DNA of 6,533 bases from a virus (Duplodnaviria; Heunggongvirae; Uroviricota; Caudoviricetes), in IMG/VR virus record IMGVR_UViG_2548876862_000011, positions 1 through 6,533 of that record; one strand, 5' to 3'. Position 1 is the first letter of the stretch. The number at the start of each line of letters is the position of its first letter. The translations under genes were made by a program, and so were the position numbers. Under the pieces are notes generated by a model that was not told the DNA's origin, did not search any database, and saw only the letters and a list, made by a program, of their open reading frames with translations. Of this stretch, positions 1-6,533 are shown piece by piece.

Positions 1-3000
1 GGGGAAAGCTTTGCCCACTGTTTTAACGAGATCGCCTTCAATCTGGTTCGCGGACAATTTTCCCAGAACCCGACAGTTCTCGTTAATCGTGACGTTGTTG
101 AGCGTCCCGGAGTTCGCATTCACGTTACCGCTGATATCGGCATTTTTCGCCGTCAGCCGCCCGTCCGGTGTCAGGGAAAATGCCGGAGGATTACCGCCGC
201 TGGTAATGGTGGGAGCCGTCAGATATTTCAGGAACACTTCATTCATAAATATCTGATCGCCCTGACCAACAAACATCGGCTTTGTGTTGCCATTCGCAGG
301 ATTAATCATCGCAATCCTGTCTGCCGCCAGCAGCACCTGACTCTGCATTCCTGCTGGCGTATTCTCAATACCGGCACCGATACCCGCAATATAAAGGCGT
401 CCGTCCTGCATCTGCTGCAGTTTCACGGCCCACATGCTGTTCAGGTTATTATTTGTATCAACCTGAACTTTCTGTATCTGCTGGATTGCCGCACTCTGAT
501 TTTCCAGTTTTTTATTGACGGTCTGCGTGATTTCATTGCTGACATTCGTAATGGACGTCCTGATTTCAGCCAGGTCCGGCGCAAGCTGACCGTTATCAAT
601 CTGCGTCCACAGCTCCTGGGCCAGATGTGTTTTCCCGATTTCTCCTTTGAAAAAATCCAGGTAACCTTCCGCATCATCGCTCGCCCGACCGACAGCCTCC
701 ACGAATGCCGATTTGCCAACAGTATTCACACTGCGGATATAAAAATAATAATCATGGCCCGGTTTGATATTGATACTGGCAGCTATCCAGTACAGCGCCG
801 AGCCAAGATAGCGGGCTGCGGTTTCAACCTGCCTGATATCCGCAATCCGCTTTTCCGAGAACCAGAACTCAAACTGTACCGTCGGGTCATAAACGGCAAG
901 ATGCGGCGTGGCGGTTATCTGAAAATAGCCCGGCGTCAGCTCAATCCGCGACGGTGCTGCCGGTGCGGCAATCCGGAAGGTGGTGGTGGCAGGTTCACCC
1001 TGCTGGCCATAGCTGTTTATCGCCCGCACCGTCAGGGTGTATTCCCCGAGCGGCAGGCCGCTGAAACGGTGCTCCGTGTCTGCGGTGATGGCGGTGGTCA
1101 CCAGTCTGGCATCCGTTCCCTTACCACTGGTCAGGCGCAGACTGAAGCGCACGCCCTTCACCACCCGCGGCGTGTCCCATTTAGCCTGCGCCAGATACTG
1201 GCCGTCAGCTGCACTCACCTCCACCGTCAGGTGCTGTACTGCCGGTGGGATGACGCTGTTCAGGGAACCTGACTGCGGCTCAAAGCGGGCACCGTTATCC
1301 ACGATGGCTTCTTTTTCCGGTACGTGCTGCACCGCCGTGATGGCAAAGGTGCCGTCCGTGTTTTCCCGGACGGAGACACAGCGGAACAGGCGACGGCGCA
1401 GTGACGGCAGGGAGAGTCCCCACACCCCGTATGTCTCCACACCATCAGGCAGGGTACTGACCTGTATCCGGTCCGGCGCGGGGTGTGCGGTGATGTCCAC
1501 ACTCACCGGCTTACCGCTGCCGTTAATCAGGTTCACCGCCGATGTACCTGTCTCCGGCAGGGTAACCTCACGGTCCAGCGTCAGGGTGCGGGTGGCAGCA
1601 TCAATGGACAGGACACGTCCGCCGGTCAGGGTCCCGGCATAGTCATTATCACAGATTTCAATAATGTCACCGGGTGTGTGCCGCAGCCCCTGAGACCCGA
1701 GCGTGAAATCCACCGTCTGCGTTTCCAGCAGTTCGGTCTTTATCACCCACAGTCCGGCACGGTGGGCCTGACCGCGGCTGGTACAGCCGAACGCGTCCAT
1801 CTTCAGCAGGTTGCGTCCGTAGCGCAGTATGGCTTCCGGGTCTTCCACCAGTTCCGTGGAGGTCTGCCAGCCGTTCTGCGGGTCGGTGTAATTCACCTCC
1901 ACCGCCGTGTGCCGGTCCTTCAGGGCACTGAAGCTGTAGCGGAATCCCACGCCGTTATCATCCACCACCACATCGCTGTTGGTGTACGGCCACACCACAT
2001 CCGACGGGCGGTCCTGAACGAACGTCAGCGTCTGGCCGTTCCATACCGGCATACAGCGCATCGCCGAGCAGAAATCACTGAGAACGTCCCACGCCTTACG
2101 CTGTTGTGACAGGTACGCATTAAAGGTCATCCGCGGCTCTGTGCCCCCGAAACCATCCGGGACCGTCTGGTCGCAGTACTGCCCGATGGCATACAGCGCC
2201 CACTTGTCCACATCCGCCGCCCCCAGACGTTTTCCCATGCCGTAGCGCGGGTGAGTCAGCATGTCCCACAGACACCAGGCCGGGCTGTTGCTGTATGCCG
2301 GTTTCAGACTGCCGTCCCAGATACCACTGTACGTGCGTTTTTCCGGGTCATAGTTTGACGGCACCTGGATGATGCGACCGCGGATATGGTAGTTCACCGT
2401 CATCTGCTGGCCGCCGAACTGCTCCGCATCCACCTGCAGCCCCACAATGGCCGTGTTCGGGTAGCACTGTTTCACATCGATGATTTCGGTGTATGACGAC
2501 CACAGCGTCTTATTCTGCAGCTGGTCCGTGGTGCTGTCCGCCGTCTCCCTGACCATCCGGATGTTAAAGGGCCGGGGAGGCAGATTATCCAGAATCACCG
2601 AGGCCAGGAACTGTGAGGTGGTCTTGCCGTTAATGGTGACGTCCTTTTCTGTCACCCAGTTACCGTTACGCTGTAACTGAATCAGCAGGCGGACGGATGC
2701 CGGGTTACGGTCACCCTTTGAGGTGGTCTCCACCAGTGACTGCACCCCGAAGGTAACCCGCAGGCGGTCAATGTTCGCGGACGTAATGGTGCGCGTCACC
2801 GGTTTTGCCTTCGTCACTTCCACGCCCAGTCCGGTTTCAGCTCCGGAGGACTCAAAGCCTTCCGGTGGTGTCTGCTCCTGCTCCCCGGCACGCCAGACCG
2901 CGGTCACACCGTGTATCACGGGATTGCCGTCCGTGTCCGTCAGTGGGGTTTTGTTCACCAGAATACTCTGCAGTCCCTTCACCGGACCTTCTATCGGTCC

Positions 3001-3096
3001 CTCACCAATCGCATCAATCACACTCATCATCTGCGTGGATTTGAGATTATCCTTCGCCTCACGAGGCGTGTGTGCCTTACCGCCACCTTTTCCCAT
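1..3096 (-). CDS. J: Central tail fiber / host-specificity (tip attachment) protein J-like; N-terminal 1032 codons, 3' end beyond the window
   Basis: Hand translation of the minus strand from ATG at 3096-3094 ([42 protein letters not shown]...) stays open for all 1032 codons to position 1 (3096 nt, ends ...GKAFP). SD-like GGGGAAGG sits 4 nt upstream. Long stretches resemble lambda gpJ as I recall it (e.g. [72 protein letters not shown]). Missing from the ORF track because no stop lies in the window. Confidence 0.9.
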
Positions 3097-3198
3097 ACAG
3101 CCTTCCCCTGAATAAATTAACCGCCACTTGCCATTCCGTACAGAAGTCGGATATCCTTCGCCCGAAAAGCATGAAACACATTTCTGCCATGCTAAAGA

Positions 3199-3236
3199 GA
3201 AACCCCGGTATCAGCAGATACCGGGGTTTTCTTTCA
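3199..3236. terminator. Perfect 10-bp GC-rich hairpin with U-rich tracts on both sides; candidate bidirectional intrinsic terminator
   Basis: ccccggtatc (3203-3212), loop agca, gataccgggg (3217-3226); A/T pairs extend the stem at the base. Plus-strand 3' flank is ttttctttc; minus-strand 3' flank reads tttctcttt. Confidence 0.45.
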
Positions 3237-3301
3237 TGCCCACCGATAATCCTGTTGGTTAAAACCGGTAATGGCATAAAAATTCTGAATATCTTCACAT
3301 T

Positions 3302-3329
3302 TTCACACACTGACTGTGGCGCTTATAAT
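3302..3329 (+). promoter_or_regulatory. Candidate sigma70 promoter: -35 TTCACA, 16-bp spacer, -10 TATAAT
   Basis: TTCACA at 3302-3307 (5/6 match to TTGACA), TATAAT at 3324-3329 (6/6), A/T-rich region immediately upstream (3261-3300). Points toward gene I, antisense to the tail operon. Confidence 0.4.
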
Positions 3330-3335
3330 TTCGCT

Positions 3336-3433
3336 GCGTTAGTGTTTTTTTGCCCGAGTAACAAAAACAACTCCTTAACATTGATCTTCATTTGTCTGTC
3401 CCCGCAGCTCCGCGATCACTGCGGGATTTTTTT
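3336..3433 (+). ncRNA. Hypothetical small RNA of about 100 nt defined by the promoter at 3302-3329 and the terminator at 3401-3433
   Basis: Promoter-to-terminator spacing fits a short transcript starting near 3336. No ATG and no SD on the plus strand within it. Contains CUCCUU (3371-3376), complementary to a Shine-Dalgarno sequence. Inferred from sequence only. Confidence 0.25.
3401..3433 (+). terminator. Rho-independent terminator, plus-strand orientation only
   Basis: Stem cccgcag (3401-3407) / ctgcggg (3419-3425), 11-nt loop, followed by attttttt (3426-3433). On the minus strand the hairpin is preceded rather than followed by the T-run, so it should not terminate tail-operon transcription. 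Confidence 0.6.
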
Positions 3434-3438
3434 ATGTT

Positions 3439-4119
3439 TTATCCCTGTCGCCCGACAACCACGACCGTTCCGCCCCCGCCTTCATCACGGGTGCTGATGT
3501 CCTGGGATATACGGCGGGAGCCAACCAGCATTTCCCCGTAAGGCACCGGCATCGGGTTCCCCTGGGCAATCATGTTATCCAGCGAGGAAAAGTACGTGTT
3601 CTGTCTGCCGTTATCCGTTGCGCGGTAATCCGGTGTTTTTGCCTTCGGGGCCAGCATCTGGGCCACACCGCCCAGAATCATGCTGGCTCCAAGTGAAAAC
3701 AGCATCGTGGTGGCAGAAAAACCACCGGCTGCCAGGGCTGAACCCCATAACGCCATTGATGCCCCGGCAGTGAAGAAAGAGCCCACGATGGCTGCCGCCC
3801 CCAGCACAATCTGCAGTCCACCCTTTCCGGCCCCGGCCAGTCGCGGCACAATGTGGATGACCGTTCCCTCACCCAGCTGTTCGTGAAGACGGGCGTACAC
3901 CGCCTCCGGTGCCGTGTCATAACCGGCAATACGTATCTGGTACCAGCCTTCGTTCATCTGACGGCGAAAGCCCGGCACCTGTAACGACAGCGCCCGGATG
4001 GCTTCCGCTGCCGTGTTCACATACAGGCTGAGGCGGCGGCCAAATCGTTGCAAATCCCCGTGAAGGCAGATGCGTGCCAGTGGCGGTGACGCCAGACAGA
4101 ATGCGTTCGTCGTTGCCAT
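3439..4119 (-). CDS. I: Tail assembly protein I-like (ubiquitin-like N-terminal domain family), 226 aa
   Basis: ORF with ATG at 4119-4117 and stop TAA at 3441-3439; SD-like GGAGAGG about 10 nt upstream. Protein (MATTNAFCLASPPLARICLHGDLQRFGRR...GGGGTVVVVGRQG) resembles lambda gpI as recalled. Starts 103 nt inside the 3' end of K in another frame. Confidence 0.9.
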   Translation of the reverse strand: MATTNAFCLASPPLARICLHGDLQRFGRRLSLYVNTAAEAIRALSLQVPGFRRQMNEGWYQIRIAGYDTAPEAVYARLHEQLGEGTVIHIVPRLAGAGKGGLQIVLGAAAIVGSFFTAGASMALWGSALAAGGFSATTMLFSLGASMILGGVAQMLAPKAKTPDYRATDNGRQNTYFSSLDNMIAQGNPMPVPYGEMLVGSRRISQDISTRDEGGGGTVVVVGRQG

Positions 4120-4760
4120 TTTTCGGAATACCTCTCCCGTTTACTCAGTTGTTCAGGCAGATGGTGAAGCAGCTCACCGTTGCCGCAGTAAATGGCGGCA
4201 TGGTTCGGTACCGAAGCACCAAAGCAGCACAGCAGAATATCGCCCGCCTGTGCAGAGGACAGGGGCACCCGGTAAAAGCCGGTGACCGCCATATTGTCCA
4301 GGTAAAGGTTCTGACCGTTGCGCCACCAGTCATCCTCGCGATGAAAATCCGGCATTTCAGTCCCCGCCAGATGATAAGCATCCCGGAACAGCGTGTAACA
4401 GTCCGTCACCCCGTGCTCAAAGCGCCGTCCTGTCAGATGTGGCACACAGCGGAATTTGTGAATGTCACCCCGGCAGACCAGCCACCAGGGCAGTGCGCTT
4501 TTTATCTGCAGCCGCCGGTCAGCCTCGCTCAGCCAGGGCAGCCCACCGGGATGACTGTGGACCAGTGCCACAATCTCCCCCTGCATCTCTGCCCGCAGCC
4601 AGTCTTCCGGTGCGATACGAAAATACGCCTCCGGCTCTGCAGAAATATTCACACAAGGGATATACCACTCCCCCTCCGGCGTGCTTATCACGAAGCCGCA
4701 CGACTCCGCAGGCACACACCGCCGGGCATGCGCCAGAATCGCTGATTCTGTCTGTGTCAT
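4017..4760 (-). CDS. K: Tail assembly protein K-like with JAB/MPN (JAMM) metalloprotease motif and NlpC/P60-like region, 247 aa (long form)
   Basis: ORF ATG 4760-4758 to TGA 4019-4017. JAMM signature H-S-H-x7-S-x2-D present as HSHPGGLPWLSEAD (residues 68-83), with an upstream Glu in PAESCG. Downstream Cys/His-containing region (GVTDCYTLF ... HAAIYCG) fits NlpC/P60. Starts 5 nt after the L stop, with no obvious SD, suggesting translational coupling. Confidence 0.85.
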   Translation of the reverse strand: MTQTESAILAHARRCVPAESCGFVISTPEGEWYIPCVNISAEPEAYFRIAPEDWLRAEMQGEIVALVHSHPGGLPWLSEADRRLQIKSALPWWLVCRGDIHKFRCVPHLTGRRFEHGVTDCYTLFRDAYHLAGTEMPDFHREDDWWRNGQNLYLDNMAVTGFYRVPLSSAQAGDILLCCFGASVPNHAAIYCGNGELLHHLPEQLSKRERYSEKWQRRTHSVWRHRHWHASAFTGICNDLAAASACM

Positions 4761-4765
4761 TGGAT

Positions 4766-5464
4766 TTACTGCGAAAGTTTGTTAATGGAAAGGAAACCGC
4801 CAAAATTAGCCACCATGCCGCGCATCTCACACCCGCGCATGCACTTGCTGCATCTGTCCTTACGGATATCGGTGGTGGGTTTATCGAACTCATCCGCCAC
4901 CGCAGGACCGTTATACCCGCATTCATCTCCCCGGTAATCCCACATACAGGTGTTCGCCAGCATGATGCGACCGGGAAACAGCGCCCCATCCGTCTCGGTC
5001 GGTGTAGCCAGCACAAACGAGGCCGTCATGGCTGTCAGCTGCGACATCTGCTCCACCACCCAGCGGTCACTCAGCTCCTGCTCCGGGTCCGCCTCCGGAT
5101 TGCCCGCAACGAAATTCACCGCATCCAGAAAACGGGCATACACCCGGCGGCGGACCACCGTGGCCCCCACCAGACTCTGCAGGTCCTCCGCCATCCCGGT
5201 GACAAGGCCAAACAGATTGGACACCGTCAGCGACGGGCGGGCACTGCTGCCCCGGCCGTTCATCTCAAAGCCGCTGCCGTCAATCGGGTATGCCTCATAC
5301 TTACGCCCCTGCCAGGTGACCGGCTCCCCTTTTTCATTCAGCTCATTACAGAAAAAATACCGCTCACCACCCTGTACCGTCAGGTCGATTTCCCAGAGTA
5401 CCACCCGCGGTGACTGCTCTGACTTAACCGACTCGTTCAGACTTTCTTCGCGAATATCCTGCAT
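4766..5464 (-). CDS. L: Minor tail / tail tip protein L-like, 232 aa
   Basis: ORF ATG 5464-5462 to stop at 4768-4766. Start overlaps the M stop by 1 nt (TGATG). SD-like AGGTGGTG upstream. C-terminal cysteine cluster (C173, C182, C205, C208, C212). Same length and position as lambda gpL. Confidence 0.9.
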   Translation of the reverse strand: MQDIREESLNESVKSEQSPRVVLWEIDLTVQGGERYFFCNELNEKGEPVTWQGRKYEAYPIDGSGFEMNGRGSSARPSLTVSNLFGLVTGMAEDLQSLVGATVVRRRVYARFLDAVNFVAGNPEADPEQELSDRWVVEQMSQLTAMTASFVLATPTETDGALFPGRIMLANTCMWDYRGDECGYNGPAVADEFDKPTTDIRKDRCSKCMRGCEMRGMVANFGGFLSINKLSQ

Positions 5465-5805
5465 CAGTTCACCACCTGCTCAATCGTACAACTGAAATCA
5501 CTGTACCTGGCGTTATCTGTGACGCTCCACTCCCGGCACACCACCCTCACCGTCCGGTTATGTTTCGGCGGTCGCCACAAAAAGGCACGGTAACCACCAT
5601 GCCAGGATAAAAATTCATCCAGCCAGCGCCGGGTTGGTTCATCCGTCACCCGGAACACCGCCTGAAACGTCTTCAGTCTGGCATTAAGTCCCGTCGGTCG
5701 GCGCTGTTCATAACCGTCACCAAACCGAACCCTCACCACCGACGGTTTCTCACTCACCTGCATCCCTTCACGCGGGACCAGATGCAGCGTTTTTATCTCA
5801 GCCAC
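5464..5805 (-). CDS. M: Minor tail / tail tip protein M-like, 113 aa
   Basis: ORF from GTG at 5805-5803 (GGAGG SD 8 nt upstream) to TGA at 5466-5464; overlaps the H stop by 8 nt. C-terminus ...CTIEQVVN matches my memory of the lambda gpM C-terminus. An internal ATG at 5763 is an alternative start but has poor SD spacing. Confidence 0.85.
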   Translation of the reverse strand: MAEIKTLHLVPREGMQVSEKPSVVRVRFGDGYEQRRPTGLNARLKTFQAVFRVTDEPTRRWLDEFLSWHGGYRAFLWRPPKHNRTVRVVCREWSVTDNARYSDFSCTIEQVVN

Positions 5806-6481
5806 TCAGCATTCCTCCGTCACGTCGCATGGACAGCATCACCGCCTGCACCCGCTGGTCAATCAGCTGCACAAGACTGCCTGCCGCCTCCGCCCCTATC
5901 TGTCCGTTAGCCCCGTCATTCTGAATGGCGATGTGGTAGACCGGGGAATACACCAGACCGGCACTGCCGTTCATACTGCCCACCGCGCGTACGCCCAGCG
6001 AGCCATCCGCCGCCCGGGTCAGGGGCATAATGGCTTCAGGTCCGGCTTCCCCCATCAGCCCGGCCCCTTTTGCAAACGCAAAGTACGTGGGCGTGTCCAC
6101 AATGCTGTTGCTGTACGCACTCAGGTTTGCCGAGGTATACACGCCGCCTTTTGCATTGGCCACCGCACCGCCCAGCCAGTCACCAATGCTGCCAATAAAT
6201 CCTCCCGCACCGGACATACCGTTTGCCGCCGTCTTAATTCCGTTGACAATCGCGGCATTCATAAGAACTTTTGAGATTTCCTGCAGTACGGATGAGGCCC
6301 AGTTGCGCCATTCCACTTTGTTTCCGTTCAGCATCTCCGTGATGTTATTCACCATCCCTGAGATACCCTCCGTCGCAAGCTGTGCTGCCTGTGAAGCGTA
6401 ATCGGATGCATTGTCCACCCAGTTACTGAGCCCCTCCTGCAAGCCTTTCTGCCAGTCCGCACGCTGCGCATCCGATTCGTA
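5798..6481 (-). CDS. H: Tail tape measure protein H-like, C-terminal 227 codons only; reading frame closed upstream by a stop at 6482-6484
   Basis: Frame is open from 6481 down to stop TGA at 5800-5798 (...YESDAQRADWQKGLQEGLSNWVDNASDY...RRDGGMLSG). Gly/Ala-rich C-terminal region and position immediately upstream of M fit a lambda-type tape measure C-terminus. The track's start at 6442 is a TTG codon, not a real start. No start codon or RBS for a full-length protein lies in the window. Confidence 0.8.
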   Translation of the reverse strand, partial: YESDAQRADWQKGLQEGLSNWVDNASDYASQAAQLATEGISGMVNNITEMLNGNKVEWRNWASSVLQEISKVLMNAAIVNGIKTAANGMSGAGGFIGSIGDWLGGAVANAKGGVYTSANLSAYSNSIVDTPTYFAFAKGAGLMGEAGPEAIMPLTRAADGSLGVRAVGSMNGSAGLVYSPVYHIAIQNDGANGQIGAEAAGSLVQLIDQRVQAVMLSMRRDGGMLSG

Positions 6482-6533
6482 TTAGACGTCAACTAGTTTT
6501 GCCGACTCGCGCCAACTATACTGGCCGCACCCT
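6482..6533. other. Non-coding segment at the window edge that interrupts the H frame; possible breakpoint or junction
   Basis: Stops in all three minus-strand frames within 6482-6533 (the H frame is closed by TAA at 6484-6482). Contains GACGTC (6485-6490) and ACTAGT (6492-6497). Confidence 0.3.

Follow-up and report, generated by a model that had tools for sequence, protein, structure and literature searches.

What is encoded by the long non-coding gap between the tail genes I and J of a lambda-type tail operon? The question is raised by IMG/VR virus record IMGVR_UViG_2548876862_000011 (Caudoviricetes), of which we analyzed positions 1–6,533 as a single stretch of 6,533 nucleotides, referred to here as the window. 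Between the stop codon of gene I (3439–3441) and the start of gene J (3096) lie 342 bp of A/T-rich, non-coding DNA (3097–3438), a distance first noted in an original prediction made from the letters alone and with which the sequence agrees. That prediction gave a separation of only a few tens of bp for lambda, where we find 60 bp, and it described the spacer as richer in A/T than its surroundings, as borne out by a GC content of 0.40–0.44 across 3101–3400 compared with 0.55–0.63 in the flanking genes. It proposed a moron-type insertion. Morons are additional DNA segments, each equipped with a promoter and a terminator, that separate genes found next to each other in related phages. We consider it highly likely that the gap consists of two parts joined at a 35-bp linker, namely a unit for the small RNA (sRNA) PasB, a lysogen-expressed and Hfq-dependent base-pairing regulator of host and island mRNAs, and a replacement leader for gene J.

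A pasB cassette in the I-proximal half of the gap

PasB (pathogenicity-associated sRNA B) is known from enteropathogenic Escherichia coli (EPEC) O127:H6 E2348/69 (Pearl Mizrahi et al. 2021, PMC8550237; Zhu, Shabalina and Storz 2026, bioRxiv 10.64898/2026.05.13.724894), where it is listed as an 83-nt RNA of prophage PP6 (NC_011601 1466343..1466261, − strand) between E2348C_1436 and E2348C_1437, with the directionality '(> <) >' (PMC8550237, table S6). The annotated sRNA aligns with positions 3351–3433 of the window (+ strand) with 82 of 83 nucleotides identical, and the PasB northern probe AATCCCGCAGTGATCGCGGAGCT is matched at 23 of 23 positions. The sole mismatch is at PasB position 27 (window 3377), which is A here and C in E2348/69; this position separates PasB from the variant PasB-2 (bioRxiv 10.64898/2026.05.13.724894), and the A is consistent with the window copy being PasB-2. 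In E2348/69 the gene is flanked by the I homologue and gpJ and runs antisense to the two of them, with the same promoter and terminator and at the same distance of 5 nt from the I stop codon. Judged by this agreement in sequence and probe, in antisense location between I and J, and in promoter and terminator motifs, the I-proximal half of the gap (3273–3438) is a pasB cassette encoded by the + strand, in antisense orientation relative to the tail genes.

The cassette has its own predicted transcription signals. A scan identified a sigma-70 promoter on the + strand matching the consensus at 11 of 12 positions, with a −35 element TTCACA (3302–3307), a 16-nt spacer and a −10 element TATAAT (3324–3329). 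This near-consensus promoter had been seen previously, although it was missed that both promoter and terminator are on the strand opposite the tail genes. The predicted intrinsic terminator (3401–3433, + strand), found by a terminator scan and in the minimum free energy (MFE) fold, is composed of the stem CCCGCAG (3401–3407)/CTGCGGG (3419–3425) with an 11-nt loop, followed by an A and a run of seven T residues (3427–3433), the last of them 5 nt from the I stop codon. Two strong hairpins had been proposed in the spacer, and both are present, one being this 3401–3425 stem with its T run and the other a 13-bp inverted repeat at 3200–3229. The pasB promoter and terminator are consensus matches only; in the region 2900–3700 a consensus scan gives three promoter-like sites compared with 0.7 expected. 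Transcription is predicted to start at about 3336, and the primary transcript probably extends from near this position for about 98 nt. In the MFE fold a U-run (3345–3351) is able to pair with the A-rich tract AACAAAAACAAC (3360–3371), which consists of four A-R-N triplets, and a profile over 51 alleles shows that the best-conserved single-stranded block is UUGAUCUUCAU (3381–3391). This block, just 5′ of the terminator, is the likely seed of PasB, and a seed just upstream of the terminator has also been proposed in a study that places PasB inside a phage structural operon (bioRxiv 10.64898/2026.05.13.724894).

The expression, size and Hfq dependence of PasB are taken from published work on E2348/69 (PMC8550237). 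The RNA was validated there by RIL-seq and by northern blot at the expected size of 83 nt, its stability is Hfq-dependent, and it is expressed from the prophage in cultures grown without induction, at a higher level under non-activating conditions. Log2 values of −6.8 (activating) and −2.4 (non-activating) are given in table S2 of that paper, which we read as a comparison of an hfq deletion with wild type, and PasB contributes to 37 Hfq-ligated RIL-seq interactions. The gene is therefore already known, having been published in 2021.

An alternative explanation is that PasB acts mainly in cis, pairing perfectly with the late tail mRNA between I and J to cause cleavage or to block read-through, and so tuning I and J or silencing leaky tail transcription in the lysogen. 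Over its full length the gene runs antisense to the tail operon, its location is always the same junction, and the 3381–3391 block is complementary to a conserved sense-strand AUGAAGAU(C/U)AA. However, the approximately 37 trans partners identified by RIL-seq belong to the core genome as well as the accessory one (PMC8550237), PasB is expressed in uninduced cultures in which late mRNA is scarce, and it is frequent in decayed prophages, for example beside a frameshifted J or truncated I, which argues for a host-directed role. We regard a mainly cis-acting PasB as improbable, and note that cis and trans roles are non-exclusive.

We observed that the PasB or J-leader region persists beside a truncated I and a frameshifted J in E. 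coli NZRM4165, and beside a split J in VT1-Sakai. Such persistence in decayed prophages is consistent with retention for host benefit.

Mosaic structure of the I-J gap

The window and E2348/69 are near-identical from the I stop codon to about position 3273 and then unrelated until the J start codon, and differences are likewise seen among lambda, the Sakai type and the window type between about 3273 and the J start. The J-side neighbor of pasB is thus different in the two genomes: the E2348/69 gap measures 240 bp and contains another hairpin, and that of the window measures 342 bp. Among contigs with the window-type J-proximal segment, nearly all of the variation is located within 3308–3437 and takes the form of PasB allele swaps, and 3097–3307 hardly varies. 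Between the two variable parts is a conserved linker of 35 bp (3273–3307) that includes the pasB −35 region, is identical in 110 of 110 contigs, and is largely common to all of the spacer types. Divergence from E2348/69 begins just J-ward of the linker and PasB allele differences begin at 3308, and because both variable cassettes begin at its edges, the linker is a likely recombination joint.

From these alignments we conclude that the island is two independently recombining modules and not a single insertion, and that the I-J junction is a cassette site, as indicated by the alternative arrangements found there, including 240-bp gaps, tandem gaps of about 420 bp and a 47-bp deletion. Recombination of the pasB cassette independently of its neighbors at the 35-bp linker goes beyond the cited papers, as does the near-invariance of the J leader module. 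The moron interpretation is right in kind and is supported for the I-proximal half by the 60-bp gap in lambda, the lower GC content, the presence of a dedicated promoter and terminator, and PasB expression in E2348/69. The cargo of this moron is a non-coding RNA antisense to the tail operon that has already been described and is not rare. A scan of raw sequence had nonetheless picked out a real prophage-borne regulatory RNA gene.

Distribution and allelic diversity of pasB

BLAST searches had been suggested as a means of establishing whether the spacer is confined to a subset of phages. Thirteen phage records, from PPompW prophages of enterohemorrhagic E. coli (EHEC) and a few E. coli phages, contain the full 342-bp gap at 100% identity. 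The PasB-type cassette is common: about 127 further Shiga toxin (Stx) or lambdoid phages match only the I-proximal ~166 nt, at 74–78% identity, and some match to the gap is present in 147 phage records and in 1612 of 5426 complete E. coli genomes. The sequences closest to the window are those of E. coli phage vB_EcoS-783R2 (99.1%) and the PPompW prophages (97%).

We assembled 179 pasB copies representing 51 distinct alleles from viral contigs and individual loci, using a search pattern of which the terminator stem, with a variable-length gap, formed part. TTCACA occurs in 176 of the 179 copies, a count that includes an adjacent TTCACA at 3294–3299; some alleles, the Sakai one among them, have other sequence in place of the −35 copy at 3302–3307. 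TATAAT is kept in 128 copies (26 of the 51 alleles), a T(T/C)(A/G)ATCTT block in 169, and a tract of three A-R-N triplets in 178, and the sequence between these conserved blocks is variable. The terminator loop differs among alleles and the stem is constant, as preset by the search pattern. Allele groups differ by 23–35% over the RNA body (about 65–77% identity) and all are located at the I-J junction, with the 240-bp gaps of E2348/69, of Sakai Sp11, Sp14 and Sp15, and of VT1-Sakai each having a PasB-type cassette at the same place. PasB is one allele of a broad series at this junction and not a low-diversity singleton, which also extends beyond the cited papers.

Two IMG/VR contigs (L133 and L164) have an I-J gap of about 420 bp in which pasB is followed, on its J side, by another PasB-like cassette of different sequence, arranged in tandem. 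This second cassette has its own AAATGTGAAGAATTTCAGAAATTTT promoter-region repeat and a CTCCCG...CGGGAGCGTTTTTT terminator, and the tandem arrangement indicates that the junction can hold two sRNA genes.

A further explanation for the gap is that it is a decayed or unannotated coding remnant. Three open reading frames (ORFs) do exist, encoding 77 residues in the sense direction (3310..3077), 141 residues on the + strand (3072..3497) and 22 residues in the sense direction (3391..3323, MKINVKELF...), two phage records annotate a hypothetical protein here, and translation by hand of the four main allele groups gives an MKIN start in three of them. However, none of the three gives a Pfam match and the only PHROG matches have E values of 0.23 and 0.34, in keeping with the previous view that no ORF is convincing. 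No annotated feature underlies the RefSeq matches among the matches listed (about 65 of >1400 records), natural variants include frameshifting 1-nt indels and a 47-bp deletion, and the mini-ORF starts with ACG in the commonest allele and differs among alleles in length and frame. Recurrence of the MKIN start is probably a by-product of sRNA sequence conservation. We consider a coding origin very improbable; with no sign of a coding remnant and with the spacer absent from lambda, neither of the two findings that were expected to overturn the moron proposal has emerged. The 22-residue mini-ORF MKINVKELFLLLGQKNTNAAKL (3323–3391, − strand) lies opposite pasB and has a GGGGA motif 7 nt upstream.

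Relationship to EcOnc22–24 and other prophage RNAs

In E. coli O157:H7 Sakai, the I-J gaps of the prophages Sp11, Sp14 and Sp15 each measure 240 bp and contain one diverged PasB allele. Hfq-crosslinked RNAs EcOnc24, EcOnc23 and EcOnc22 have been reported in Sp11, Sp14 and Sp15 respectively, in antisense orientation to the tail genes (Tree et al. 2014, PMC4104026, table S2), and EcOnc22 is about 85 nt on a northern blot and destabilized without Hfq (PMC4104026). The three peaks map inside the three Sakai I-J gaps at equal offset, in coordinates of an older genome version. As the AsxR peak is about 135 nt lower than the AsxR position determined with Rfam in the current Sakai version, we infer a coordinate shift of about +135 nt between versions, and applying this shift places the EcOnc22 peak within the PasB-like RNA. 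Elements of PasB that recur in the Sakai sequences are its terminator, the UUAAUCUUCAU block, its U-run and its A-rich tract, although the RNA body is only ~75% identical to that of the window, the 5′ region is different and the promoter match is weaker. From the peak positions and these shared features, EcOnc22–24 are very probably PasB-family RNAs. Table S6 of the PasB study notes no EHEC homologue for PasB (PMC8550237), EcOnc is absent from the text of the preprint (bioRxiv 10.64898/2026.05.13.724894), and the link between EcOnc22–24 and PasB is stated in neither paper. EcOnc33 and EcOnc54 were also considered as RNAs of the I-J junction and rejected, as they map beside a sialate esterase gene and in the Sp6 L-K moron, respectively.

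A further parallel is offered by AgvB and AsxR of EHEC prophages (Rfam RF02702 and RF02703), which like PasB are short Hfq-bound RNAs encoded by morons in lambdoid prophages and form allelic series in which the 3′ terminator part is conserved and the A-rich 5′ part varies. They differ in location, being downstream of PR′/stx and not in the tail operon, and in that they are anti-sRNAs, whereas no sponge activity is known for PasB. The whole window gave no covariance-model match to AgvB or AsxR (Rfam, E ≤ 1), and a Sakai control gave AsxR (Sp5, 88 bits) and STnc100. An AgvB-like sponge for GcvB, suggested by a CA-rich tract, was rejected given this location downstream of PR′ and the lack of an Rfam match; complementarity to GcvB R1 is only 6–7 bp by eye. 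Esr41 was rejected as well, being located in SpLE1.

The J-proximal module

The remainder of the gap (3097–3272) is a non-coding, near-invariant module of 176 bp that takes the place of the ~70-bp J leader seen in 240-bp spacers and has no similarity to E2348/69, Sakai or lambda. Of 5426 complete E. coli genomes, 1446 (about 27%) contain it, with at least 99% identity in 1442 of 1451 records, and diverged relatives were not found among those genomes. Only 13 phage records contain it, and among 185,579 species representatives it is found in E. albertii only, where the module is identical at 176 of 176 positions and the neighboring PasB allele is 77% identical. Divergence from the window in 60-bp bins is 0.05–0.18% in the module, 0.6–3% in J (up to 11.7%) and about 3% in I. 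Together with the linker (3097–3307) the module varies 5–20 times less than the coding DNA of I and J on either side, whereas the pasB cassette is multi-allelic.

The prominent feature of the module is a strong hairpin (3194–3238 with its flanks) with a perfect 13-bp stem (3200–3212/3217–3229) and a 4-nt loop, recognized as an inverted repeat and by folding, with energies of −27.1 and −26.4 kcal/mol when the flanks are included. U-rich runs flank it on both strands, UUUCUCUUU (3202–3194) in the tail-sense direction and UUUUCUUUC (3230–3238) on the + strand. Folding z-scores for 3090–3300 are −3.0 (sense) and −5.0 (antisense) relative to shuffled controls, and the 13-bp hairpin dominates the fold. 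The tail-sense MFE structure also includes a second, weaker hairpin, GCAUGGCAG...UUUCAUGC (3192–3169) followed by UUUUC (3168–3164), that spans 3164–3192 on the − strand. The 240-bp gaps and lambda have a different, non-homologous hairpin with a U-tract at the same tail-sense place before J; the 60-bp lambda region has the same flanking genes and a sense GC hairpin and U-tract just upstream of J, and differs from the window in hairpin sequence and in having no antisense promoter and no sRNA cassette. In the hairpin of the 240-bp type one stem pair is exchanged from C-G to U-A, with U.G intermediates. A terminator-like sense hairpin before J therefore recurs, and by its predicted structure the 3194–3238 hairpin looks like a bidirectional intrinsic terminator or a barrier at an RNA 3′ end.

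It is also possible that the J-proximal module is a functional RNA under strong selection, either an antisense sRNA of about 70 nt with a promoter-like sequence at 3128–3157 and a terminator at 3200–3238 (+ strand), or a structured leader that gates J translation. Its low variability relative to adjacent J coding DNA, its identity in E. albertii, the folding z-scores and the U-tract on the + strand side of the hairpin all fit such a role, as does a predicted sense fold in which the J start codon region pairs with 3136–3145, and the tandem cassettes described above show that the site accepts more than one sRNA gene. However, the + strand promoter-like site (TTGCCA-18-TATCCT, 3128–3157) is weak, matching the consensus at 9 of 12 positions with an 18-nt spacer, and combining it with the 3200–3229 hairpin to give an antisense RNA of ~70 nt is speculative; the sense strand yielded no promoter-like site. 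The module resembles neither the PasB alleles nor any Rfam family, may owe its invariance to being young and spread by recombination, and has lost the hairpin to a 47-bp deletion in one contig. We think a selected functional RNA rather unlikely. A broader form of this proposal, which we regard as tentative and doubtful, is that the module and the 35-bp linker are a functional RNA or DNA element, between a hypervariable sRNA cassette and a mosaic J gene, that selection keeps almost unchanged at every base, acting as a second antisense sRNA or as a leader/terminator switch for J, with PasB, EcOnc22–24 and about 50 further alleles then forming one fast-diversifying cassette series. If the module does control J expression, it would bear on prophage regulation of a host-range protein.

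Several variants and candidate interpretations of this region were noted. The deletion is in an IMG/VR contig (L186) at the equivalent of about 3180–3226, where 47 bp between short GAAA repeats are lost together with the 13-bp hairpin and the rest of the module is kept. Two contigs with 240-bp-type spacers (L145 and L204) differ by short tandem repeat copy number, with about four copies of a GACATCA heptamer 5′ of the J Shine-Dalgarno sequence compared with about two. An apparent second copy of the module in phage records, reported as matches in two places, is the palindromic hairpin matching both strands. The hairpin was also considered as a mobile or repeated element and this was rejected, the similar stems in seven other viral contigs being unrelated terminators; no terminal repeats or target duplications were seen.

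Observations that weigh against the two-part interpretation

Some observations count against reading the gap as a pasB unit joined to a replacement J leader. The published 5′ end of PasB, which is coverage-based, corresponds to 3351 and lies 15 nt 3′ of the start predicted from TATAAT, which would mean an approximate published end or processing of the RNA. A target motif was not found for PasB, whose RIL-seq partners are candidate targets (PMC8550237), and expression of the window copy is carried over by analogy from that of E2348/69. Rfam has no PasB family, and an Rfam scan of the whole window, which had been proposed as a check, gave 0 hits at E ≤ 1. Folding of the allele alignment recovers the terminator only, with no covariation, and the terminator stem was itself preset by the search pattern. 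Within the J-proximal module, a consensus terminator scan did not call the 3200–3229 hairpin, probably because extension of the stem uses up the T-run. Finally, near-invariance over all 176 bp exceeds what a simple terminator and leader would need, and this may reflect either a functional RNA or recent spread by recombination.

Proposed mode of action

Under the two-part interpretation, the sigma-70 promoter would fire toward gene I to give an RNA of about 83–98 nt ending at the terminator 5 nt from the I stop codon. The layout of this RNA resembles class II, in which the A-R-N tract (3360–3371) would contact the distal face of Hfq and the U-tail the proximal face, a binding mode that we infer from the motifs. 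As the late tail mRNA is fully complementary to PasB in its I-J stretch, a cis-antisense effect may accompany pairing in trans. The hairpin of the J-proximal module would, on the tail-sense strand, most likely be an intrinsic terminator or a barrier to 3′ exonucleases; polymerase not modified by Q would stop there before J, and Q-modified polymerase would read through. On the other strand the same hairpin may insulate pasB, with its promoter, from antisense transcripts.

Flanking genes and other tail-operon insertions

The genes flanking the gap are all on the − strand. M (5805..5464), L (5464..4766) and K (4760..4017) are lambda-type tail genes identified from the ORF list, and are followed by the tail assembly gene I (3439..4119), assigned by a match to PF06805 Lambda_tail_I (2e-16) and by annotation of the E2348/69 homologue. 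The 5′ part of the tail tip and host specificity gene J (1..3096) starts with an ATG at 3096–3094, preceded by a Shine-Dalgarno sequence read as AGGGGAAGG (3109–3101, − strand), and leaves the window; its first 199 residues correspond to PF24801 FNIII-A_GpJ (3e-37, Pfam), and homologues are annotated as gpJ. The start of gene I is uncertain. Its longest ORF encodes 226 residues and overlaps K by 103 nt (window 4017–4119), as in lambda, and RefSeq homologues are annotated as a shorter product of 193 residues starting 4 nt inside K.

The tail operon has another moron site in Sakai Sp6 (NC_002695.2 1576553–1578208), where genes for a transcriptional regulator and the antirepressor Ant are located between L and K; the Hfq peak EcOnc54 is probably between the regulator and Ant. 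In Stx2a_WGPS6 the Ant gene is located upstream of K.

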